Source: Nitrospirota bacterium (GTDB lineage: Bacteria > Nitrospirota > Thermodesulfovibrionia > UBA6902 > DSMQ01). Taken from it: DNA of 64,000 bases. The stretch covers positions 110-64,109 of the forward strand of contig JACQXB010000037.1 in the NCBI GenBank assembly GCA_016208965.1. Direction: 5' to 3'. The notes beneath the pieces were generated by a model. It worked only from the letters and a program-made list of their open reading frames with translations. It was not told the origin of the DNA and made no database searches. How positions within the stretch are numbered: position 1 is the stretch's first letter; every line of letters begins with the position of its first letter. Of the stretch, positions 12,343 through 39,533 are shown piece after piece. The position numbers were made by a program, and so were the translations under genes.

Positions 12343-12418
12343 TGGTGGGCAGTCGCAGAATCGAACTGCGGACACGAGGCTTTTCAGGCCTCTGCTCTAC
12401 CGACTGAGCTAACTGCCC
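12343..12418 (-). tRNA. tRNA-Phe (anticodon GAA), CCA encoded
   Basis: The reverse complement folds as a cloverleaf: GGGCAGT acceptor, GCTC/GAGC D-stem, GAGGC-CTGAAAA-GCCTC anticodon arm, CGCAG-TTCGATT-CTGCG T-arm. Confidence 0.95.
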
Positions 12419-12491
12419 TAACCCTGAATATTTTTCTGTAGTCTCTGAGGTTTTTTTAGACACTTTTTGGCTAACAAAAACTATAGCTACA

Positions 12492-12521
12492 ACTATACCC
12501 CATAGCTTTTTTTATTGTCAA
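12492..12521 (-). promoter_or_regulatory. Candidate sigma70-type promoter for tRNA-Phe
   Basis: The minus strand reads TTGACA (12521-12516), an 18-nt spacer, then TATAGT (12497-12492), ~70 nt upstream of the tRNA 5' end. Confidence 0.35.
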
Positions 12522-12790
12522 CCCTGATAAGTCGTAAACCAAACCCCTGTCTTGTTTCACAAATCATAAGCTGAAAAATTGTACAGTTTTAGTATAAAAT
12601 GTGATTAAATAAAATGCCTCGTAAAAAAGTACATCATAAGCTATCTAATAACTTCTGGATAACAGCGGCATCTTTTCAAACCATTATCTTTTAGAACGTC
12701 TGCCGCAAGCAGGAACAAAAATATGGCATCCAGACGAAGAAGTGTTCTCATGCTCATTGAAAAAATACAAAAACCCTGATACCTTATTAC

Positions 12791-14581
12791 ATGGTTGAAA
12801 AAACTAATCACGAATCAATCTTTCAAAGAAACATACAGAGGGCAGTAGAAAAAGGGTTTATTTCTTTTTCCCCTGATAACTCAAAGATTACATATCACTG
12901 TAGTCGAGACTATACTGCGAGTTTCAAAAAGCCAGAGGAAAAGGTAAGAGCTTCTTATTTTGCCGAACTGGTTTTGGATTATGAATATCCCGATAAGAAG
13001 ATAGACTTTGAAGTCATTGTTCCGAGAAGGAAGCCTGAAGACAGGGCGGATATTGTTATCTATGAAGACGGCGAGATTAAAAAGCCTTATCTGGTTGTTG
13101 AGTGCAAAAAAGACGGCATTTCTGATGCTGAGTTCAAACAGGCGATTGAACAGGCTTTTGGAAACGCAAACAGTTTAAGGGCAAAGTTTGCCGCAGTAAT
13201 TGCCGGCACTACTAAAACAGTCTTTGATATTGCTGGATTTAAGCCGAGTGAGAGAGAAAGAAATGTAGTTTCCGATGTTTCTGTAAGATACGGAAGAACT
13301 CCCAAATATCGATTCGTTAAAGGCGATCCGGCAAGAGATTTAAATATCGTTTCAAGAGAAGAACTTATCAGGGCTTTAGAGAAATCCCACGATACAGTCT
13401 GGCAGGGCGGAAGACTTGCGCCTACGACAGCTTTTGATGAAGTCTCAAAGCTTCTTTTCTGCAAACTGAGAGACGAAAAAGGCACTAAGAAAGGCGATAC
13501 CTACAAATTCCAGATAGGAACTCATGAATCAGCAGAAGACGTTTACGATAGAATTGATTCTATCTATCAAAAGGCAAAAAAGGAAGACTCGGAGGTCTTT
13601 AAAGAAGATATCCGGTTAGATGCAAGGATTGTTTACAATGTGGTTGAGCATCTGCAAGAGTTAGCTATAAATAAGATTGATTTGGATACAAAAGGAATCG
13701 CCTTTGAAAGATTCATGCAGGATTTTTTTAAAGGCAAGATGGGTCAGTTCTTCACCCCGCGCCCGATTGTTGAATTTGCTGTTAAGATGCTCAATCCTGA
13801 AAGAACGGATGTAGTCTTAGACCCTGCCTGTGGAAGCGGCGGCTTTCTGCTTAATGCTATGGATTTAGTCAAAAAATTTGCAGAAGAAAACTATGATGAA
13901 AAAGAAGCATGGGAGCACTGGCATAATTTCGCTATGAATAATCTTTACGGCATTGAGATTAATGACCAGATTGCAAGGGTTTGCAAGATGAACATGATTA
14001 TACATGACGATGGGCATACCAATGTGATAAGCACGGATTCATTAAGAGACGTAAAGGAAATTACTGACATACATAAAGGCTTCAAAAAGGATTATTTCGA
14101 CATCATCCTTACCAATCCACCCTTTGGGGCTACCGTCAAATCAACAGAGAAAAACTATTTAGAAAAGTATGACATTGGAAAGAGCAAGAAAAATCAGAAG
14201 ACAGAGATAATGTTTATTGAGAGGTGCATTGATTTTGTGAAGCCGAAGACGGGTAAGATTGGCATAATATTGCCTGATGGGATTTTAACAAACTCATCTT
14301 TGCAGTATGTGAGAAATTTTATAATGGAGAAATGCCAGATATTAGCCGTTGTTTCCCTGCCTCAATTTGCCTTCACTCATTACGGCGCAGGCGTTAAATC
14401 TTCTCTCGTATTTCTGAGAAGAAAAGGTGAAAATGAAAGATTGACCAGATATCCAATCTTCATGGCAATAGCCGAACACATCGGCTACGACGCCACAGGC
14501 AGAGAAGACCCGATAAATGATTTTGATAAGATTTATGAGGAATATAAAAAGTTTATTGAGCATCATAGTAAAAAGTTTTGA
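12791..14581 (+). CDS. N6-adenine DNA methyltransferase with N-terminal PD-(D/E)xK (HsdR-N-terminal-type) domain; possible BcgI-like RM subunit
   Basis: RADIVIYEDGEIKKPYLVVECKKDG (D...ExK nuclease-like core), DPACGSGGFL (SAM motif I), LTNPPFG (motif IV). Upstream 12614-12790 carries out-of-frame remnants of a typical N-terminal leader. Confidence 0.8.
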   Translation: MVEKTNHESIFQRNIQRAVEKGFISFSPDNSKITYHCSRDYTASFKKPEEKVRASYFAELVLDYEYPDKKIDFEVIVPRRKPEDRADIVIYEDGEIKKPYLVVECKKDGISDAEFKQAIEQAFGNANSLRAKFAAVIAGTTKTVFDIAGFKPSERERNVVSDVSVRYGRTPKYRFVKGDPARDLNIVSREELIRALEKSHDTVWQGGRLAPTTAFDEVSKLLFCKLRDEKGTKKGDTYKFQIGTHESAEDVYDRIDSIYQKAKKEDSEVFKEDIRLDARIVYNVVEHLQELAINKIDLDTKGIAFERFMQDFFKGKMGQFFTPRPIVEFAVKMLNPERTDVVLDPACGSGGFLLNAMDLVKKFAEENYDEKEAWEHWHNFAMNNLYGIEINDQIARVCKMNMIIHDDGHTNVISTDSLRDVKEITDIHKGFKKDYFDIILTNPPFGATVKSTEKNYLEKYDIGKSKKNQKTEIMFIERCIDFVKPKTGKIGIILPDGILTNSSLQYVRNFIMEKCQILAVVSLPQFAFTHYGAGVKSSLVFLRRKGENERLTRYPIFMAIAEHIGYDATGREDPINDFDKIYEEYKKFIEHHSKKF

Positions 14582-14610
14582 AAAGCAGTGGGCAGACAGA
14601 TATTTTTTTA

Positions 14611-14685
14611 TTTGTCATTCCGCACTTGATGCGGAATCCAGTCTCTATTTTTCTGGATTCCTGCTTCCGCAGGAATGACGACAAA
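14611..14685. repeat. MITE-like double hairpin (gtcattcc..ggaatccag / ctggattcc..ggaatgac)
   Basis: tttgtcattccgcacttgatgcggaatccag ... ctggattcctgcttccgcaggaatgacgacaaa. The same family occurs at 15144-15219, 20778-20911 and 51805-51835. Confidence 0.75.
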
Positions 14686-14706
14686 CTAATACTATAGGAA
14701 TAAAGT

Positions 14707-16108
14707 ATGCAATGCTTTGTTGTCTGGAGTAACGAGATTGAAGGGAGATTAGACCCTAATCTTTACGAGCCTAAATACAAAAAACTTTCAACAAATTTAA
14801 AAAAGATTAAATGTCAGGAGTTGGGCGATATAATTGCTTTTTCAAATGAGACATGGGAACAAAAAACTTTTTTTGGTGACAAGTTTCCTTATATTGAGAT
14901 AAGTGAGATTGATGTTATTTCAGGCGAAATTAGAAACATTATTTACTATGATAAAAAAGAAGCTCCAAGTAGAGCCAGAATGGTAGTAAGAGAAGACGAC
15001 ATAATTGTTTCTACAACAAGACCACATAGAGGAGCAATTTCTTTAATAGATAAGTCAAAAGATGGTTTTATTGCTTCAACAGGCTTTGCTGTATTAAGAG
15101 AATTAAACCTGAATCCTGCGTGAAAAATCATAATTTTACCTTTCTGGATTCCCGCTTACTGATTGCGGGAATGACAACCAAATAAATGTCATGCCCGAAG
15201 TTTTTAATCGGGCATCCAGTTCTTTTTCTATCTGCTTTAATGAATTAAAAAAAATAATTATCCCCCTCTCTCCCCTTCCCATCCAAACCCAAATCGTTGA
15301 CATTATGCGGTTTGCATATAATCAGAAGAAAGAGAAAGAGGCAGAAGCACAGAAGCTATTGGATTCGATTGACGGATACGTGCTTGATGAGTTGGGAATA
15401 AAACTGCCGGAGGTTGAGGACAAGATGTGCTTTGTTGTTGACTCTGAAGAAGTGCGGGACAATAGAGCGGATGCTTATTATTATCAGCCAAAATTTGAAG
15501 AACTGGCAAAGGCGATAGAGAGAGGACGATACGGAATTGAAAAATTGAAGAAGTTTATAACAAAAATCCATTATGGTGTTTCTATCAAGAATGTCTATGT
15601 TGATGAAGGAATACCCCTGCTTAGGATATTAAATTTAAAACCTAATAAAATAGACCTGACAGCTGTTGTCAACCTTGAAGAATCAAAGAGAAAAGAAATT
15701 GGCAATGGTTTTGTTTACGAAGGCGACTTGTTAATTTCCAGAAGTGGGTCTGTTGGAATTGTTGCTGTTGTTCCAAAAGAAGCAGATGGTTTTGCCTTTG
15801 GCTCGTTCATGATTAAGTTTTGTATTAATGATGAAATAAGTAAAGAATATGTCTCCTTATGGCTAAATAACTACTTTACTAAACTGCTAACAGAGAGAGA
15901 AAAAATAGGAGCAATACAAGGCAATATAACAATATCAACTATAGAAAACTTTCAAATCCCTCTTCCCTCTCTCGAAGTCCAGAACAAAATCGCTGATGAA
16001 GTTAAAAGACGAATCTCTGAAGCTGAAAGGCTTAAAGCGGAAGCAAATAAGATTATTGAAGAAGCTAAAAAAAAGGTTGAAAAGATAATATTTGGAGGTA
16101 TGATTTAA
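14707..16108 (+). pseudogene. HsdS-type specificity subunit, interrupted by a MITE (two ORFs 14707-15123 and 15191-16108)
   Basis: The first ORF is TRD1 (STTRPHRGAISLI, ASTGFAVLR) and stops at 15121-15123. The MITE lies at 15144-15219. The second ORF resumes at IIPLSPLPIQTQIV (central conserved region), then TRD2 and PLPSLEVQNKIADEV. About 40 residues of the TRD1 tail appear to be lost. Confidence 0.7.
15144..15219. repeat. MITE-like double hairpin inserted in the S-subunit gene
   Basis: ctggattcccgcttactgattgcgggaatgac ... gtcatgcccgaagtttttaatcgggcatccag. Confidence 0.75.
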
Positions 16109-16584
16109 TGCTCACTCAGTCTGAAGCAGACGCTTTATTTGCAATGCCTAAGAAACCTAAGTCAAACGATCCTGTTACATTTCCTCATGCTGGAGGAAAA
16201 CTGCTTGTAGAGTTTGTTTCTTTAGACGACAGAGAGATTTTTCTTTTCAATATTAATAGGGCGAGCATAGAGGTTTCTAAATGTACTTATCAAAAACGTG
16301 CCCGCCATGTAGAAATCTTAAGACGACTGGATATTGGTGGTTCTCCGCATCCTAACCCAGAGGTTGAGACTGTTCCTTTAGATTTCCTTTCTCCCTATAA
16401 TGGAGTTGAAATGCCATGTCCTCACCTGCATATCTATGTTGAGGGTTTTGCCGATAAGTGGGCTATTCCCGCACCTGCGGAGTTGTTAAATTCAAATAAC
16501 GACTTATATGCCACTATGGAAAGTTTTTTAAAATATTGTAATGTAACAGAGATGCCGAATATAGAAAGAGGGTTATTCCTATGA
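16108..16584 (+). CDS. Hypothetical protein (158 aa), translationally coupled to the S gene
   Basis: ATG overlaps the S-gene stop (TAATG). Motif region GGSPHPNPE...CPHLHIYVEGFADKWAIP. I cannot confidently name a family from the sequence. Confidence 0.6.
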   Translation: MLTQSEADALFAMPKKPKSNDPVTFPHAGGKLLVEFVSLDDREIFLFNINRASIEVSKCTYQKRARHVEILRRLDIGGSPHPNPEVETVPLDFLSPYNGVEMPCPHLHIYVEGFADKWAIPAPAELLNSNNDLYATMESFLKYCNVTEMPNIERGLFL

Positions 16585-17348
16585 GTGCATTAGATTGCTA
16601 TCAACTTGTTGATCTATACGCAAACTGGCTTAAAGAGAAAGTTAAGCTGAAAACAATAGGTGATATATGTGAGCTTACAACTCCTTTTGTCGATCGGCAT
16701 AACGATTATTTGCAGATATATGTTAAAGCTATTCCCGCAGGGATGTTGTTAACAGATGACGGATATACGATCCGAGATTTAGAAATGAGCGGTTTTGAAT
16801 TCAATACGGAACGTAGAAAAAATGAGCTAAAAATTATTCTAAATGGGTTTGGGGTAAATCTTCATGGAGACAGTCTTGAAGTAGAAGCACGTCCTGATAA
16901 TTTTCCACAAAAAAAACATAACCTGCTGCAGACAATGCTTGTAATAAACGACCTTTTTGTATTAGCACCTCCAAAAGTCGCAAGCTTTTTCAGGGAAGAC
17001 GTTGAGAGATTTCTATCATTACATGATATCAGGTTTACAAAGGATATTAATTTTATTGGTAAAAGCGGCTTTAATCATCACTTTGATTTTGTAATACCTC
17101 CTTCTAAGAAAGAACCCGAGAGAGTCTTACGGACAATCAATAATCCTACTAAAAATAATGTCTCGGCTATAATTTTCTCCTGGGATGATGCCAGAAAAGT
17201 AAGATCAGAAAATTCAGTTGCTATAGCTGTACTCAATGACCAGGATAAAGAAATTACTCCTGACGCCATACATGCCTTAAAGGCTTATGAAATAGAGCCA
17301 ATAGCATGGAGCAAGCGAGATAAATATATTGATAAGCTTACTGCATAA
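16581..17348 (+). CDS. Hypothetical protein (255 aa), resembles DUF1828 (N) + DUF1829 (C) architecture
   Basis: ATGA overlap with the upstream gene. TTPFVDRHNDYLQIYV, DGYTIRDLEMSG, FPQKKHNLLQTMLVINDLF and GKSGFNHHFDFVIPP match my recollection of DUF1828/1829 proteins; this is unverified. Confidence 0.55.
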   Translation: MSALDCYQLVDLYANWLKEKVKLKTIGDICELTTPFVDRHNDYLQIYVKAIPAGMLLTDDGYTIRDLEMSGFEFNTERRKNELKIILNGFGVNLHGDSLEVEARPDNFPQKKHNLLQTMLVINDLFVLAPPKVASFFREDVERFLSLHDIRFTKDINFIGKSGFNHHFDFVIPPSKKEPERVLRTINNPTKNNVSAIIFSWDDARKVRSENSVAIAVLNDQDKEITPDAIHALKAYEIEPIAWSKRDKYIDKLTA

Positions 17349-17415
17349 CAAAGTTCATAAGAGTTTGTGTGAACTTTGCGGGTCAGGAACTTTGTGGGGT
17401 CATCAGGAACTTTGT

Positions 17416-17550
17416 GGGGTCAGACACCAAAATTGACATTTTACAAGATGATAAAACACACCCCTTAATCCCCTCTTGATAAAGGGGAAGTAATAACAAA
17501 GGCAGGTACATTATCCGAAGGGCAGAGGAAATTGAGATTGTGGAGGGAAA
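17416..17550. repeat. Island direct repeat, copy A (preceded by a 2x20-nt tandem ggtcaggaactttgtgg)
   Basis: The ~113-nt core ggggtcagacaccaaaattgacattttacaag...ggcaggtacattatccgaagggcagagg differs from copy C by 4 substitutions and a 1-nt indel (by eye). It ends gagattgagattgtggagggaaa. Confidence 0.85.
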
Positions 17551-17553
17551 TAA

Positions 17554-17604
17554 ATGAAACTCGATCAAATCGGCTTCTGGTCTGAAATCAAACTGGGGGA
17601 ATAA
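17554..17604 (+). pseudogene. 16-codon ORF MKLDQIGFWSEIKLGE, probable 5' stub of a lost gene
   Basis: It starts 7 nt after the GGAGGG of repeat copy A. The GxWSxxKL N-terminus resembles TcmP-type partner proteins from memory. It is stopped after 16 codons. Confidence 0.3.
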
Positions 17605-17690
17605 AAGGGGAGGTATATTTTCTGAAGGGAGATTGGGTTGGAAGATTAGAAAAAGCATAGACTGTGATATTATAGAATATAGAAATAAAA

Positions 17691-17897
17691 GTGAGGGGGT
17701 GGTTTAAAGTGGGCACTGCTACAGCAAAAAAAATAAATCCTGAAGATTTTATCCTCTCTGCGCTTTCTCCTGAGGACAGGCTTAACGCCGCTTTCAAAGT
17801 TGCAGGCGAGGCATTTAAAAAGACCACATTGACAATGAAAGACATTGATAAAGCAGCTAAAACTGTGAGGAGAAGAATCTACGGAAAAAAGAAGTAA
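17691..17897 (+). CDS. Putative antitoxin upstream of PIN toxin
   Basis: Small ORF ending 20 nt before the PIN ORF. The likely start is GTG 17709, after GAGGGGG. No recognisable family. Confidence 0.4.
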   Translation: MRGWFKVGTATAKKINPEDFILSALSPEDRLNAAFKVAGEAFKKTTLTMKDIDKAAKTVRRRIYGKKK

Positions 17898-17916
17898 GAT
17901 AGTTATTGATACAGGC

Positions 17917-18300
17917 GTGCTTGTTTCTGCCTTTGCCTTTGGCGGTGTGCCTGAGAAATCTGTCAGAAAGGCATTTAAAGAGGCAGACATATATGTATCC
18001 CCAGCCCTTCTTGAAGAGTATCGTGATACCCCGTTGGAACTTGAAACCGAGGGGAAGATAAGCCATATCCAGTTAAAGGCATTAATTTCCGGAATAGCCT
18101 CTTTTGTTGCAAACACAAGAATTGTTTATCCATCTGTAAAGTTATCACTCTGTAGAGATACCGACGATAATATGCTTCTTGAATGTTGCCATACAGCAAG
18201 AGCAAAGATTCTCATCACTGGCGATAAAGATCTTCTGGATATAAAGAATTTGCCTTTTGACCTTAAGATACTGACGCCACAAAAATATTTAGAAGAATAA
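17917..18300 (+). CDS. PIN-domain toxin (TIGR00305-like putative TA toxin)
   Basis: VIDTGVLVSAF..GG (first acidic motif, partly upstream of the called GTG), YVSPALLEEY, DTDDNMLLECC, ILITGDKDLL. Confidence 0.8.
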   Translation: MLVSAFAFGGVPEKSVRKAFKEADIYVSPALLEEYRDTPLELETEGKISHIQLKALISGIASFVANTRIVYPSVKLSLCRDTDDNMLLECCHTARAKILITGDKDLLDIKNLPFDLKILTPQKYLEE

Positions 18301-18340
18301 TACTTTCATGTGTTTTTCAAAAAAAGGAGCCTGGGATTAA

Positions 18341-18403
18341 ACAAAGGGGACAGGCAGATTATCTGAGAGAGCGGAGAGGAGATTGAGATTGTGGAGGGGA
18401 AAA
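18341..18403. repeat. Island direct repeat, partial copy B (3' module only)
   Basis: acaaaggggacaggcagattatctgagagagcggagaggagattgagattgtggaggggaaa aligns to the 3' third of copies A and C. Confidence 0.7.
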
Positions 18404-18440
18404 GGTAAACTTTAAGCAGGGCACTTAAGAAGGTGGAATA

Positions 18441-18746
18441 ATGGGCAGGACGAAGATAGAAATACCAGAGGAAAAAATAGCAGAATTTTGTAAAAGGAAT
18501 CATATCCTCAAGTTGTCACTTTTTGGTTCTGTTCTCCACGGCGATTTCAGGCCGGACAGCGATATTGATTTGCTTGTTGAATTTGATCCTGATCATATCC
18601 CGGGTTTCTTTAAGCTTGCTCATATGGAACGAGAACTTTCAGGGATTATGGGGAAAAAAGTAGATTTAAGAACACCTCACGAATTGAGTAAATATTTCCG
18701 TGATGATGTTCTCTCCGAAGCAGAGGTGCAGTATGCCGAAAGATGA
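18441..18746 (+). CDS. MNT-type nucleotidyltransferase antitoxin (MntA)
   Basis: [22 protein letters not shown] (GSx10-12DxD nucleotidyltransferase motif), ~100 aa. Confidence 0.85.
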
Positions 18747-18852
18747 CCTTGTTCGGATGCGCCACATCCTTGATGCTGCCAGAGAAGCGTTATCATTTAC
18801 GGCAGGGAAAACAAGAGTTGACCTGAATGCTAATCGTATGCTGGTGTTGTAA
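18733..18852 (+). pseudogene. HepT (DUF86/HEPN) toxin, 5' fragment only (39 codons)
   Basis: ATG overlaps the MNT stop by 14 nt. [22 protein letters not shown] is a typical DUF86 N-terminus. It stops at 18850-18852, 12 nt before repeat copy C. The RxxxxH HEPN motif is absent. Confidence 0.6.
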
Positions 18853-18864
18853 AAATGTAAAAAT

Positions 18865-19025
18865 GGGGTCAGGCACCAAAATTGACATTTCACAAGATGA
18901 TAAAACACACCCCTTAATCCCCTCTTGATAGAGGGGAAGTAATAACAAAGGCAGGTACATTATCTGAAGGGGCAGAGGGCAGGAGCCTGCCCGCGGTAGG
19001 CAGGAGATTGCGATTGTGGAGGGAA
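18865..19025. repeat. Island direct repeat, copy C (with a 25-nt GC-rich hairpin insertion)
   Basis: Same core as copy A. The extra gcaggagcctgcccgcggtaggcag precedes gagattgcgattgtggagggaaa. Confidence 0.85.
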
Positions 19026-19154
19026 AGTTCATCATAAATTTCAGGATTTAGCTAAATGAAAAAGAGCAAAATCATTAAACCCATAGACTCAACGCATCAA
19101 AACATAAAACTGACCCTTGACCAAGCATATTTTTAACAGGTTTAGAAAATTGTT

Positions 19155-20711
19155 ATGGTAAGCAAAAAAGATATAATTTTAGCTGTCCTATCAGGCGCCC
19201 TCCTTATTTTGGGGTTTCCTCCATTTGATATCTATTTAATCCCATGGATAGCTTTTGTCCCTCTTTTTATATCTCTGATTGGGAAAAGCCTTAGGTCAGC
19301 TTTTTTTTTAGGGGCATTAAGTGGTTGCATATTTTTTTTAGGGACTATTTTCTGGATATTTAATTCATTATATTTTTATGGCAATATCCCTCTGGTCTTG
19401 AGTGTGATAACTGTAGTGCTCCTATGCCTTTATTTAGGTGCATATACAGGCATATTCTCATTACTTTTTACCTATCTTGTAGGGCGGACAAGATTTCCAT
19501 CACTCTTTATATGCCCTGTATTGTGGGTTACGATAGAGTTCCTCAGGACTTATGCCTTGACAGGTTTTCCATGGGCATTATTAGGGTATTCTCAGTATAA
19601 GTTCTTAGCACTCATTCAAATCGCTGATATTACGGGAGTATATGGTATCTCTTTTCTTGTTGTCGCTGTAAATTCTCTGCTCTTTGATATGTTTTTTTAC
19701 TGGCCCAAAAGACAGAACGAAATGCCTCTTCTTGACCGATCGCTGCTTACTCTTGGATTAATAACGTTGGGTATTATCGTTATCACAACACTCTCTTACG
19801 GTATCTGGAGATTGAGTTCTGACGAGGGTGTTCAGAAAGTTAAAGTAAGTTTGATTCAGGGAAATTTTGAACAGGATAAAAAATGGGATGTCAAATTTCA
19901 GAAGGAAATCATTGAGACATATAAGAGCCTCTCAACAAAGGCAGGGGAAGAGGCTCCCTCTATTATCATATGGCCTGAAACCGCTGTGCCTTTTATCTTC
20001 AATCATGATAAGGAGATGACACAAGACCTCATAGAGTTTCAAAAGACCCTCGGTATATATTTGATATTTGGAAGCATTACCATAAAAGATATAAAAGATA
20101 ATAAATATCAACTATCAAATAGCTCTGTGCTCCTTCCTCCCCAGGGCGAAACATTGGCTATTTATGATAAAATACACTTAGTTCCATATGGTGAATATGT
20201 CCCACTGAGGAGGTTTTTCCCTTTTATTAGTAAACTGGTAGAGGGAATCGGAGATTTTGTCCCCGGGAAGCAGTATTTGATTGTGCAGACACCTTTTGCG
20301 AAAATTGGTAATCTTATTTGTTATGAAATAATATTTCCTGGGCTGGTAAGGAAATTTGTTGATGGTGGCGCAGACCTACTTGTAACTATTACAAATGACG
20401 CATGGTTTGGTAGGTGGGGGGCACCTGAGCAGCATTTCTCTATGGCAGTCCTCAGGGCAGTAGAGAACAGGGTTCCTATAGTAAGAGCAGCAAATACTGG
20501 AGTCTCAGGTGTGATAGATGCAAGGGGGATAATAAAAAAGAAAAGTGATATCTTTGTTAGGGCTGTCTTAACAGAAGATATAGCTGTTGGGTTATTTAAG
20601 AAGAGTTTTTATTCAAGATATGGTGATCTCTTTGCCTTTTTTTGTATAATTAGCTCTGTACTATTGATAGCCAATAATATATCTTCCTCTAAGGGGAGAA
20701 GTGTTATCTAA
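19155..20711 (+). CDS. lnt: Apolipoprotein N-acyltransferase
   Basis: Polytopic N-terminal half followed by a nitrilase-type domain with IIWPETAVPF and LICYEIIFP (catalytic E/K/C context). Confidence 0.9.
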   Translation: MVSKKDIILAVLSGALLILGFPPFDIYLIPWIAFVPLFISLIGKSLRSAFFLGALSGCIFFLGTIFWIFNSLYFYGNIPLVLSVITVVLLCLYLGAYTGIFSLLFTYLVGRTRFPSLFICPVLWVTIEFLRTYALTGFPWALLGYSQYKFLALIQIADITGVYGISFLVVAVNSLLFDMFFYWPKRQNEMPLLDRSLLTLGLITLGIIVITTLSYGIWRLSSDEGVQKVKVSLIQGNFEQDKKWDVKFQKEIIETYKSLSTKAGEEAPSIIIWPETAVPFIFNHDKEMTQDLIEFQKTLGIYLIFGSITIKDIKDNKYQLSNSSVLLPPQGETLAIYDKIHLVPYGEYVPLRRFFPFISKLVEGIGDFVPGKQYLIVQTPFAKIGNLICYEIIFPGLVRKFVDGGADLLVTITNDAWFGRWGAPEQHFSMAVLRAVENRVPIVRAANTGVSGVIDARGIIKKKSDIFVRAVLTEDIAVGLFKKSFYSRYGDLFAFFCIISSVLLIANNISSSKGRSVI

Positions 20712-37944: not shown

Positions 37945-38037
37945 GGAGAGGTGGCCGAGCTGGTCGAAGGCAGCCGCCTGCTAAGCGGTTGTGGGGGTAA
38001 AACTTCACCCAGGGTTCGAATCCCTGCCTCTCCGCCA
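37945..38037 (+). tRNA. tRNA-Ser (anticodon GCU), long variable arm, CCA encoded
   Basis: GGAGAGG acceptor, anticodon arm GCCGC-CTGCTAA-GCGGT, T-arm CAGGG-TTCGAAT-CCCTG. Confidence 0.93.
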
Positions 38038-38061
38038 TATACCATACGGTATATGGCTCCG

Positions 38062-38134
38062 CCAGTTAAAAGACAGTGAAGAGTGAAGAGTTAAAAGTTT
38101 TTATTCCTTAACTCTTAACTCATAACTTATAATT
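38062..38134. terminator. Hairpin of AGTTAAA/GAAGAGT words downstream of tRNA-Ser(GCU)
   Basis: cagttaaaagacagtgaagagtgaagagttaaaag ttttta ttccttaactcttaactcataactt. Confidence 0.5.
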
Positions 38135-38162
38135 CTAAAATATAAAATTCAGGAGGAGAGAA

Positions 38163-38714
38163 ATGAAAAGATTTTTGAAAGTATCATCGGTTGTAATAGT
38201 AATATTGTTATCAATTGCGGCTTGCAAGAAAAAGGAGGAACAACCAATTCCCAAGGCACCCATGAGGTCAGGTCCGATAATGGAAGCCCCTGCTGTAGCA
38301 CCCGGGCATGAGACAACGGGTACAAAGGTCACATTTCAGATAGTTGTACCTCAGGATGTAAAAGATACATGGTCTGCTGTTAAGTTAATAGTAGAGGACA
38401 AAAAATTAAACAAAACACAGGAATTTATTGTCAATCTCGGTAGTGAGCTAAGGATTCCTGATTCAAACTTAAGGATTAAGATAGGTAATTTTCTTCCGGA
38501 TTTTAGAATGGACGGGCAAATTATCACTTCAGTATCTAATATGCCGAATAATCCATCTGTTGGGGTAGTAATTTATGAAGATGGCAAACAGATATTTCCG
38601 GAGATGGGAAAAGAGTGGGGATGGTTATGGGCCCGCAAGGAACTTCAGGCTATGCACCCTTTCATGCACCCGAAATATGGAATAACACTTAAAGAAGGGG
38701 TTTCAAAGAAATAA
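38163..38714 (+). CDS. Putative lipoprotein, unknown function
   Basis: Lipobox-like LLSIAAC at residues 15-21. 183 aa, no recognised domain. Confidence 0.6.
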   Translation: MKRFLKVSSVVIVILLSIAACKKKEEQPIPKAPMRSGPIMEAPAVAPGHETTGTKVTFQIVVPQDVKDTWSAVKLIVEDKKLNKTQEFIVNLGSELRIPDSNLRIKIGNFLPDFRMDGQIITSVSNMPNNPSVGVVIYEDGKQIFPEMGKEWGWLWARKELQAMHPFMHPKYGITLKEGVSKK

Positions 38715-38789
38715 AACCATTAATGGGTCTACGGGATAAAGGCTTTTTCAGGATGGCTAACAAACATTGTCACATTTTTTATAAAAAAT

Positions 38790-38866
38790 GCGCCCATAGC
38801 TCAAATGGATAGAGCGCCGGACTACGAATCCGTAGGTTGGGGGTTCGACTCCCTCTGGGCGCGCCA
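38790..38866 (+). tRNA. tRNA-Arg (anticodon ACG), CCA encoded
   Basis: GCGCCCA acceptor, anticodon arm CCGGA-CTACGAA-TCCGT, T-arm GGGGG-TTCGACT-CCCTC. Confidence 0.93.
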
Positions 38867-38895
38867 CATTAGTTCATAGTTCATAGTTTTTAGTT

Positions 38896-39372
38896 ATGAC
38901 AATGGATGAATACTTCATGCGACTTGCCCTCGGAGAGGCAGAAGCATCCTTTAAAGAAGGTGAGGTGCCTGTGGGCGCAGTCCTTGTAAAAGATAATGTT
39001 GTTATAGCCGCTGCTCATAATATGCGAGAGGCAAAGAACGACCCAGCCGCACACGCAGAGTTGATAGCACTCCAAGAAGGTGCTTCTAAAATAAAGAGTT
39101 GGCGGTTAATAGATGCGACACTTTATGTAACAAAAGAGCCTTGCCCAATGTGTGCAGGTGCAATGGTAAATGCAAGGCTCAAGAGACTTGTTTATGGCTG
39201 CAAGGATAAAAAAGGAGGAGCGGTCGATAGTCTCTACAACCTTCTGTCAGATAAGAGACTTAACCATCAGGTTGAAGTTATATCAGGAATTTTAGAGAGT
39301 GAATGTGCAGAGATATTGAAGAGGTTTTTTGAGACGCGAAGGAATAGCTTGGAGAGATGCCAGAGTGGTTGA
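38896..39372 (+). CDS. tadA: tRNA adenosine(34) deaminase TadA
   Basis: HAELIAL (HAE) and PCPMCAGA (PCxxC) zinc motifs. The 3' end overlaps tRNA-Ser(CGA) by 22 nt. Confidence 0.92.
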   Translation: MTMDEYFMRLALGEAEASFKEGEVPVGAVLVKDNVVIAAAHNMREAKNDPAAHAELIALQEGASKIKSWRLIDATLYVTKEPCPMCAGAMVNARLKRLVYGCKDKKGGAVDSLYNLLSDKRLNHQVEVISGILESECAEILKRFFETRRNSLERCQSG

Positions 39373-39435
39373 ATGGGGCGGTCTCGAAAATCGCTGTGCC
39401 GAAAGGTACCGTAGGTTCGAATCCTACTCTCTCCG
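39351..39435 (+). tRNA. tRNA-Ser (anticodon CGA), no encoded CCA
   Basis: GGAGAGA/TCTCTCC acceptor, anticodon arm GCGGT-CTCGAAA-ATCGC, variable arm GTGCC-GAAA-GGTAC, T-arm GTAGG-TTCGAAT-CCTAC. Confidence 0.9.
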
Positions 39436-39440
39436 TTAAT

Positions 39441-39533
<93 letters not shown>

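Follow-up and report, generated by a model that had tools for sequence, protein, structure and literature searches.

The window analyzed here is a stretch of 64,000 nucleotides from a contig of a Nitrospirota bacterium (JACQXB010000037.1), and its positions 12791-17348 carry an operon of four reading units, all on the plus strand. This region probably comprises two independent defense modules placed in one operon: a Type IIB-like restriction-modification (R-M) enzyme encoded by genes 1 and 2, and a cassette of the PDC-M24 type, a candidate phage defense system, encoded by genes 3 and 4. The data are better explained by modules placed side by side than by a new methyltransferase-guided system. 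The first-pass annotation had proposed that the system is undescribed, a designation that can no longer be maintained: genes 3 and 4 correspond to the PADLOC candidate PDC-M24, genes 1 and 2 are of the BcgI/BsaXI type, and, both parts belonging to kinds already catalogued, the novelty of the locus is modest. The description of four same-strand genes with translational couplings was exact to the base: in TAATG (16106-16110) the stop codon of the specificity (S) gene overlaps the start of gene 3, with GGAGG ten bases upstream as the ribosome-binding site, and in ATGA (16581-16584) genes 3 and 4 overlap by 4 bases. The reading units, which lie between the genes for tRNA-Phe and lnt, are composed as follows (aa, amino acids; TRD, target recognition domain; ORF, open reading frame; AF2, AlphaFold 2).

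12791-14581, plus strand: gene 1, RM subunit of a Type IIB-like enzyme, 596 aa (Pfam, PADLOC, homology to RM.BsaXI).
14707-15123, plus strand, frame 1: gene 2, S fragment 1, N-terminus and main part of TRD1, 138 codons, ending with TGA at 15121-15123 (ORF list, PADLOC Specificity_I).
15118-15240, plus strand: gene 2, damaged stretch with two stops, a frame change, an insert and a degraded motif (three-frame translation, tblastn, alignment).
15134-16108, plus strand, frame 2, first ATG at 15191: gene 2, S fragment 2, end of TRD1, central conserved helix, TRD2 and C-terminal conserved helix (Pfam Methylase_S).
16108-16584, plus strand: gene 3, PDC-M24A, DUF6978, 158 aa, beta-rich (Pfam, PADLOC, AF2).
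16581-17348, plus strand: gene 4, PDC-M24B, DUF1828 and DUF1829, 255 aa, predicted two-domain nuclease-like protein (Pfam, PADLOC, AF2).

Gene 1 is intact. It had been described as a fusion of a PD-(D/E)xK-like module with a gamma-class N6-adenine methyltransferase, and both Pfam (HSDR_N_2, residues 48-147, E-value 2.7e-14; N6_Mtase, residues 299-588, E-value 4e-46) and the motifs RADIVIYEDGEIKKPYLVVECKKDG, DPACGSGGFL and NPPFG, all of which were found, agree with this assignment. The protein is built of an N-terminal nuclease domain, a helical connector and the methyltransferase domain, and it matches the PADLOC profile MTase_I (PDLC03030) with an E-value of 1e-133. Its best relative of solved structure is RM.BsaXI (8w0p in the PDB, E-value 3.7e-41). 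The catalytic residues of the N-terminal domain, whose absence from alignments had been considered a possible objection, are present: D87 and E104-x-K106 are aligned onto D90, E105 and K107 of BsaXI, while D72-x-E74 further upstream comes within one position of E73-x-E75 in a low-confidence part of the alignment. In BsaXI, residues E73, D90, E105 and K107 are essential by mutagenesis, and they are conserved across Type IIB enzymes.

The proposal that genes 1 and 2 exhibit the BcgI (Type IIB) layout, i.e. a nuclease-methyltransferase fusion plus an S subunit without HsdR, is therefore corroborated by RM.BsaXI as the closest solved relative and by the D...ExK residues; the likeness to BcgI itself is one of layout, the sequence comparison having been made with BsaXI. 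The features shared with BsaXI and BcgI are the RM chain, composed of an N-terminal PD-(D/E)xK nuclease and a gamma-class N6-adenine methyltransferase, a Type I-like S subunit, whose two recognition domains are recognizable here, and the lack of HsdR. There are also differences. Gene 1 encodes 596 aa as opposed to 916 aa in RM.BsaXI, and the alignments end near BsaXI residue 766; thus, gene 1 has no counterpart of the C-terminal "paddle", which matters for BsaXI cleavage. Moreover, two-sided cutting is a predicted property of the gene 1 family, and the S gene is broken in the window.

The earlier statement that no HsdR-type gene occurs anywhere in the window agrees with the ORF sizes (the longest ORF does not exceed 654 aa) and with tblastn searches of the window with two HsdR types, which gave nothing at E <= 1e-3. 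Since neither the window nor any of the 81 gene 1-type loci compared encodes HsdR, a classical Type I R-M system (HsdM, HsdS, HsdR) was rejected for genes 1 and 2. Membership in the MADS defense system was likewise rejected: the NCBIfam models gave 311.6 bits for MAD2 (cut-off 720) and 84 bits for MAD5 (cut-off 400), and PADLOC reported only mad2/mad5-like matches, far below the generic MTase_I and Specificity_I matches.

The gene 1 family is large (more than 7950 hits) and broadly distributed. The window's protein is 94% identical to its homolog P0241 over 99% of the length; the family members are 75-94% identical across Nitrospirae, Leptospiraceae, Omnitrophica, bacteria of the Candidate Phyla Radiation (CPR) and several archaeal phyla, and the proteins from distant bacterial phyla, CPR bacteria, DPANN and other archaea (L081-L161) retain 75-80% identity, which suggests a very recent and wide horizontal spread of this restriction module. 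A full-length S gene adjoins the gene 1-type gene in 75 of the 81 related loci, while HsdR, gene 3 and gene 4 were each found in none of them, and no third gene is kept across the set. A large serine recombinase is encoded near the gene 1-type gene in 15 of the 81 loci; the other recurrent neighbors of the M-S pair include a DUF5655/NucS_C-like gene located between M and S, an ABC ATPase, an IrrE-like regulator and two unknown families. The M-S pair is thus a self-contained, mobile two-gene restriction module.

Gene 2 had been described as a two-TRD HsdS-type subunit. This holds for its composition, as TRD1, CR1, TRD2 and CR2 (CR, conserved region) are all recognizable despite the interruption at 15118-15137; it does not hold for its integrity, as the gene is split by stop codons and a frame change. 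Fragment 1 exhibits 61-67% aa identity to TRD1 of seven intact S proteins (L144, L112, L098, L157, L115, L119 and L125), and fragment 2 is matched by Pfam Methylase_S (E-value 2e-15) and is 48% identical to residues 147-458 of the S protein from L081, the locus with the closest relative of gene 1. In tblastn, this intact S protein matches the window in two pieces, residues 1-145 aligning with 14707-15117 in frame 1 and residues 147-458 with 15137-16093 in frame 2; the 19 bases between the two alignments hold a stop in each frame (TGA at 15121-15123 in frame 1 and TAA at 15131-15133 in frame 2). Within about 100 bases after these stops, the window has lost the motif LNQMLQRSSGGNYPAIT, which the homologs with the same type of TRD1 keep. 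All seven intact S genes of this type continue with ...YLxFxLRTxxxLNQMLQRSSGGNYPAIT.EELKKIIIP, where the window has FYLSGFPLTDCGNDNQINVMPEVFNRASSSFSICFNELKKIIIP instead, i.e. seven extra codons (about 21 bases) and a degraded version of the motif. The insert bears a hairpin at 15148-15172, ATTCCCGC-N9-GCGGGAAT, of the same type as both hairpins of a palindromic element located between genes 1 and 2. Thus, in this assembly the S gene carries at least two lesions.

Two other explanations of the damaged stretch were discarded. The replacement of a part of the S gene by a miniature inverted-repeat transposable element (MITE) does not agree with the observation that most of the stretch still aligns to S proteins, which points to a smaller insertion plus decay. 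An invertible TRD1 segment (shufflon) was considered on account of the inverted repeats 14599-14621 and 15168-15190, which match at 19 of 23 positions; neither a recombinase nor a second hsdS copy was found, and the right arm (15168-15190) belongs to the hairpin insert. It is possible, if rather unlikely, that the interruption is an assembly or consensus artifact, or that the downstream fragment acts as a half-size S subunit in a dimer, so that the restriction enzyme would be active in the organism. Half-size S subunits can function in Type I systems, and gene 1 is fully intact. Furthermore, L162, a short-read contig of the same population, matches the window exactly from about 15241 on and has a different, intact TRD1 end upstream; the population contains different TRD1 alleles, and the contig may therefore mix strains near 15241. 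However, the damage exceeds a single indel, as it combines two stops, a frame change, a hairpin insert and the loss of a motif retained by 7 of 7 homologs of the same type, and M and S are themselves separated by an inserted palindromic element of a related kind.

For genes 3 and 4, the earlier likening of gene 4 to DUF1828/DUF1829 agrees with Pfam (DUF1828, E-value 5.8e-26; DUF1829, 1.2e-32), and gene 3 was identified as DUF6978 (1.7e-37). The gene 4 protein has a 100% identical counterpart at NCBI, recorded for a "Nitrospirae bacterium". Both proteins match the PADLOC profiles of PDC-M24 over practically the full length: gene 3 matches PDC-M24A with an E-value of 4.8e-50 (residues 1-157 on profile positions 1-145 of 146) and gene 4 matches PDC-M24B with an E-value of 5.3e-103 (residues 6-255 on profile positions 4-255 of 255). 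PDC-M24 is the supplement cassette CAS_00098 among 145 phage defense candidates proposed by "guilt-by-embedding", in which genes were collected from the inside of Type I R-M, BREX and DISARM operons, and in the seven cases put to the test embedding pointed to real defense systems (Payne et al., bioRxiv 10.1101/2024.01.29.577857). In the literature searched, the name "PDC-M24" occurs in no main text and solely in a supplement; functional papers on DUF1828, DUF1829 or DUF6978 were not found there, except for DUF1829 in the protein DS-6B, DUF6978 and DUF1828 being mentioned only incidentally; on HipAD, only the DefensePredictor paper came up besides unrelated ones, and queries with Pfam accessions and with Ronin, Ocr and Type I returned nothing. 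The pair resembles the defining instances of PDC-M24 in being composed of adjacent same-strand genes with full-length A and B profile matches, attached to an R-M operon, and it differs from them in its host, which is here a Type IIB-like M/S pair without HsdR in place of the Type I, BREX and DISARM systems used in the definition.

The AF2 model of gene 3 is of high quality (predicted local distance difference test score, pLDDT, 91.5; predicted template modeling score 0.86), and it matches no fold in the PDB (best E-value 0.59) and a single uncharacterized phage protein in BFVD (E-value 6e-4). The alignment reveals the invariant residues D75, G78, H81, N83, P84, H106, H108, Y110 and E112, of which D75, H81, N83, H106, H108 and E112 suggest a metal-binding or catalytic site. 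An exhaustive DUF6978 profile search yielded 1295 cluster representatives, nearly all of them stand-alone proteins of about 150 aa; the longer ones possess no informative fused domain, save for one protein joined to DUF1828 and another joined to a membrane-protein family. The gene 4 model (pLDDT 87) retrieved NucS, Card1, VC1899, Can2, Bax1, McrC and MspJI from the PDB with Foldseek (E-values 8e-4 to 4e-2), i.e. PD-(D/E)xK nucleases with an additional N-terminal domain, at template modeling (TM) scores of 0.3-0.37 and 7-13% identity; gene 4 is thus predicted to adopt a fold like that of PD-(D/E)xK nucleases. The likeness to NucS, Card1/Can2 and Bax1 is weak, and no canonical ExK lysine is evident in the DUF1829 domain. 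The family-wide invariant residues of gene 4 are D38, D42, D59, D60, K112, N123 and D124 in the N-terminal domain and D140, D169, R181, N219 and D220 in the C-terminal domain, with E180 about 90% conserved; they hold even in phage homologs of about 31% identity. At the level of sequence profiles, neither protein had a significant match in the PDB. The structural check proposed for genes 3 and 4 gave weak nuclease-fold matches for the latter and none in the PDB for the former.

The occurrence of the pair was surveyed among 600 pattern matches in species-representative genomes, of which 574 encode a gene 4 relative (the pair family is hence represented in no fewer than 574 genomes); the loci analyzed number 80 and come from many phyla of bacteria and archaea. 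In 68 of these 80 loci, gene 4 is immediately preceded by gene 3, nearly always at a distance of no more than a few bases. A gene 4 homolog without a detectable gene 3 upstream was seen in L003/L004, L002, L021, L051, L068 and L079; in L003 and L004, two unrelated genes (271 and 280 aa) stand between the gene 4 homolog and a gene for a large AAA_11/AAA_12 helicase-MTES_1575 nuclease protein. In such loci, either gene 3 is too diverged to be detected or gene 4 takes other partners. Among the 45 well-flanked loci, 21 have hsdM/hsdS upstream and hsdR (identified with Pfam) downstream of the pair on the same strand, 5 have another R-M arrangement and 19 have none; in the Type I loci, gene 3 often begins 4-11 bases after hsdS. 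An intact hsdR just outside the operon in related genomes, which the first-pass annotation had named as a finding that would speak against its proposal, accordingly follows the relatives of genes 3 and 4 in these 21 loci and occurs in none of the 81 loci with a relative of gene 1.

The remaining homes of the pair are diverse. In L008-L010 it resides in an operon with a DUF1156 methylase, a DUF499 protein and a helicase, which we take to resemble DISARM, and other copies lie in loci with OLD nuclease, Fic or Schlafen-like genes. Copies sharing 87-96% identity adjoin quite different neighbors: very close relatives (87-91% identity) stand beside an N6_N4 methylase with Abi_C or beside a giant helicase with ThsB-TIR, and near-identical copies were found beside OLD nucleases, Abi_C, ThsB-TIR, large AAA_11/AAA_12 helicase-MTES_1575 nuclease proteins, and DUF3644. 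The pair is also located between a repressor and an integrase in Staphylococcus phage 37 and in the Lactobacillus prophage Lj965, in the latter two genes away from a gene annotated as superinfection exclusion, and it is carried by the IncP plasmid pRSB223. In all three of these elements the upstream partner is DUF6978, and no methyltransferase is annotated within the 3-6 kb flanks examined. The linkage of genes 3 and 4 to methyltransferase/S genes and to defense loci, anticipated in the first-pass annotation, was thus recovered across genomes.

The complete arrangement recurs in three groundwater contigs (L170-L172), which encode gene 1 (592 aa), an intact S subunit (463 aa), gene 3 and gene 4. 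In L170, a gap of 1 base separates M from S, and the stop codon of S meets the start of gene 3. The DNA of these contigs is 87% identical to the window over gene 1 and 93% identical from the 3' end of S through gene 4, while both recognition domains differ; the arrangement is therefore old enough for specificity swaps. The four-gene operon is not a chance arrangement, because it recurs with the intact 463-aa S at 87-93% DNA identity. Its range is confined to close relatives, whose gene 4 shares at least 96% identity.

In the two-module reading, genes 1 and 2 (module A) would encode a Type IIB-like R-M enzyme of the BcgI/BsaXI kind, which would methylate adenine at its target and cut unmethylated DNA by means of the N-terminal PD-(D/E)xK domain, with no need for an HsdR motor. 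In this genome, module A is probably inactive, because the S gene is interrupted and both Type IIB activities depend on S. Genes 3 and 4 (module B) would constitute a mobile PDC-M24 cassette that nests in defense operons, most often in the gap between hsdS and hsdR, and rides on prophages and plasmids. Module B most likely acts autonomously, with gene 4 as a putative nuclease-type effector and the small His-rich gene 3 protein as its presumed obligate partner, which may be a regulator, a sensor or an antidote; together they could provide an abortive-infection or toxin-antitoxin-like defense against phages.

Several points weigh against this reading. The S lesion is known from one metagenome assembly and might be a misassembly. 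That gene 4 is a nuclease is weakly supported (Foldseek E-values of about 1e-3, TM scores of about 0.3-0.37, the classical ExK lysine not evident), gene 3 is without a structural or functional analog, and PDC-M24 is a candidate with respect to its anti-phage role. The S-gene 3 overlap and the persistence of the operon at 87-93% identity indicate that the link of the pair to M/S is not a one-off, and with recognition domains shuffled in the meantime a functional link could exist. Besides, approximately half of the PDC-M24 copies adjoin methyltransferase/S genes, as functional dependence would also give; a functional link of the pair to DNA modification is nonetheless disfavored because the pair has many other homes.

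Another interpretation is that genes 3 and 4 are a selfish addiction (toxin-antitoxin) or mobility cassette with no anti-phage role, which merely accumulates in defense islands and at prophage ends. The small upstream gene overlapping a larger nuclease-like downstream gene is reminiscent of toxin-antitoxin systems, the pair moves very readily from one context to another, it is flanked here by interspersed repeats, and its anti-phage role has candidate status. We regard this interpretation as improbable: the prophage copy resides in a lysogeny module beside a superinfection-exclusion gene, the invariant His/Asp cluster of gene 3 is enzyme-like, unlike typical antitoxins, DUF1829 occurs in the validated defense protein DS-6B of HipAD, and embedding correctly predicted defense in the seven cases tested (Payne et al., bioRxiv 10.1101/2024.01.29.577857). 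DS-6B (DUF3037 + DUF1829), which belongs to the validated defense system HipAD, shares DUF1829 with gene 4, with the difference that its partner is a HipA kinase and not DUF6978.

The idea that genes 3 and 4 belong to a methyltransferase-guided module built on gene 1 is unlikely, because 0 of 81 gene 1-type loci carry the pair, because its copies at 87-96% identity have differing neighbors, and because of the prophage and plasmid copies. In its fullest form, i.e. one integrated four-gene system in which genes 3 and 4 work with the M/S complex as an additional effector or as a guard triggered by anti-restriction, it is very improbable. The arguments in its favor are the coupling of gene 3 to S with its own ribosome-binding site, the preservation of the operon with an intact S in L170-L172, the short distance (4-11 bases) from hsdS to gene 3 in Type I loci, and the position of the pair, which in 21 of the 45 well-flanked loci falls between hsdS and hsdR. 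Yet, apart from its absence from the gene 1-type loci, the pair has no Type I gene nearby in 19 of the 45 well-flanked loci, copies at 87-91% identity have unrelated neighbors, the copies in phage 37, Lj965 and pRSB223 have no annotated methyltransferase within the flanks examined, and in the window the pair is intact while S is broken. A comparable case is PrrC, which is held in check by EcoprrI and fires on phage anti-restriction. The likeness is that of a non-R-M gene inside an hsd operon (the EcoprrI Type I operon), while no similarity of sequence or fold to PDC-M24 exists. Payne et al. (bioRxiv 10.1101/2024.01.29.577857) cite PrrC as the prime example of a system that rarely occurs other than embedded; PDC-M24 is common outside R-M operons, which argues against a PrrC-like dependence on the host enzyme. 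An equally remote conjecture is that PDC-M24 may be less than fully autonomous and would be a guard on DNA-modification modules, sensing the loss of M/S or its inhibition by a phage and releasing the gene 4 nuclease. If so, the window and the L170 operon would exhibit the first such guard on a Type IIB rather than a Type I enzyme, and DUF6978 would be a sensor or enzyme with a new fold.

For annotation, the two-module reading implies that an "R-less" M+S pair of the gene 1 family should be described as a Type IIB-like enzyme and not as an orphan Type I methylase, and that the family is a widely traveling restriction module, often adjoining a serine recombinase. It also provides an independent metagenome context in which DUF6978 + DUF1828/DUF1829 appears as an obligate two-gene unit moving among R-M operons, defense loci, prophages and plasmids. 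Should the pair prove to be anti-phage, DUF6978 would add a fold without a solved analog to the defense repertoire. The conserved residues of genes 3 and 4 are concrete targets for mutagenesis, and the intact L170 operon is a natural construct.

The surroundings of the operon include the following features.

12343-12418, minus strand: tRNA-Phe.
14599-14690: palindromic element resembling repetitive extragenic palindromes (REP) or MITEs, two hairpins with 8-bp stems (sequence, RNA fold).
17383-17560: interspersed repeat at the 3' end of the operon, 20-base tandem plus 108-base unit (repeat finder, blastn).
19155-20711: lnt.

The flanking genes (phoH-like, ybeY, dgkA, lnt and prfB, names read off the translations) are presumably housekeeping genes. 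Their run is interrupted between tRNA-Phe and lnt (12419-19150), where the content is solely defense genes, toxin-antitoxin genes and repeat elements, and this interval looks like a variable defense islet; a classical tRNA-integrated island was dropped, as the variable region is on the 5' side of tRNA-Phe, although no search aimed at an attachment-site repeat or an integrase was made. Scans for promoters and terminators gave results at chance level only. Downstream of the operon, at 17691-18300, a 68-aa ORF without a family match is followed by a PIN_3 domain protein with a GTG start, probably a VapBC-like toxin-antitoxin pair in the same variable region. The interval 18441-18852 encodes an MntA-like nucleotidyltransferase antitoxin (PADLOC PDC-S09) and, after it, a short ORF ending where a repeat copy begins. 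By eye, we take this ORF to resemble the N-terminus of the HepT toxin partner. The two appear to be a decayed MntA/HepT-like toxin-antitoxin pair, because the short ORF is cut off at the start of the repeat copy.

This repeat copy is the second copy (18864-18971, 96% identity in blastn) of the approximately 108-base repeat, the first of which follows the operon together with a 20-base tandem duplication at 17383-17422. Fragments of the repeat are present at 18375-18398 and 19002-19026, further copies occur in other Nitrospirae contigs (L001, L002, L081, L083, L084 and L086), and the repeat brackets defense cassettes. The short-read contigs L162-L166 all stop inside it; therefore, the repeat is multi-copy in the lineage. 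The palindromic element occupies the 125-base spacer between genes 1 and 2, is predicted to fold as RNA with -36.1 kcal/mol (z -3.6), and is missing from the 1-base gap of the sister operon L170. Its hairpins have the form ATTCCNGC...GCNGGAAT, with a third such hairpin within the damaged S gene (15148-15172), and the window contains two occurrences of the hairpin motif, where 0.02 would be expected. The same motif was also seen in the unrelated genomes L013, L029 and L074, and it may represent a small repeat, mobile or recombinogenic, that is widely distributed and inactivates genes. Farther downstream in the window, at 37945-39532, four tRNA genes are clustered (Ser-GCT, Arg-ACG, Ser-CGA and Ser-GGA).

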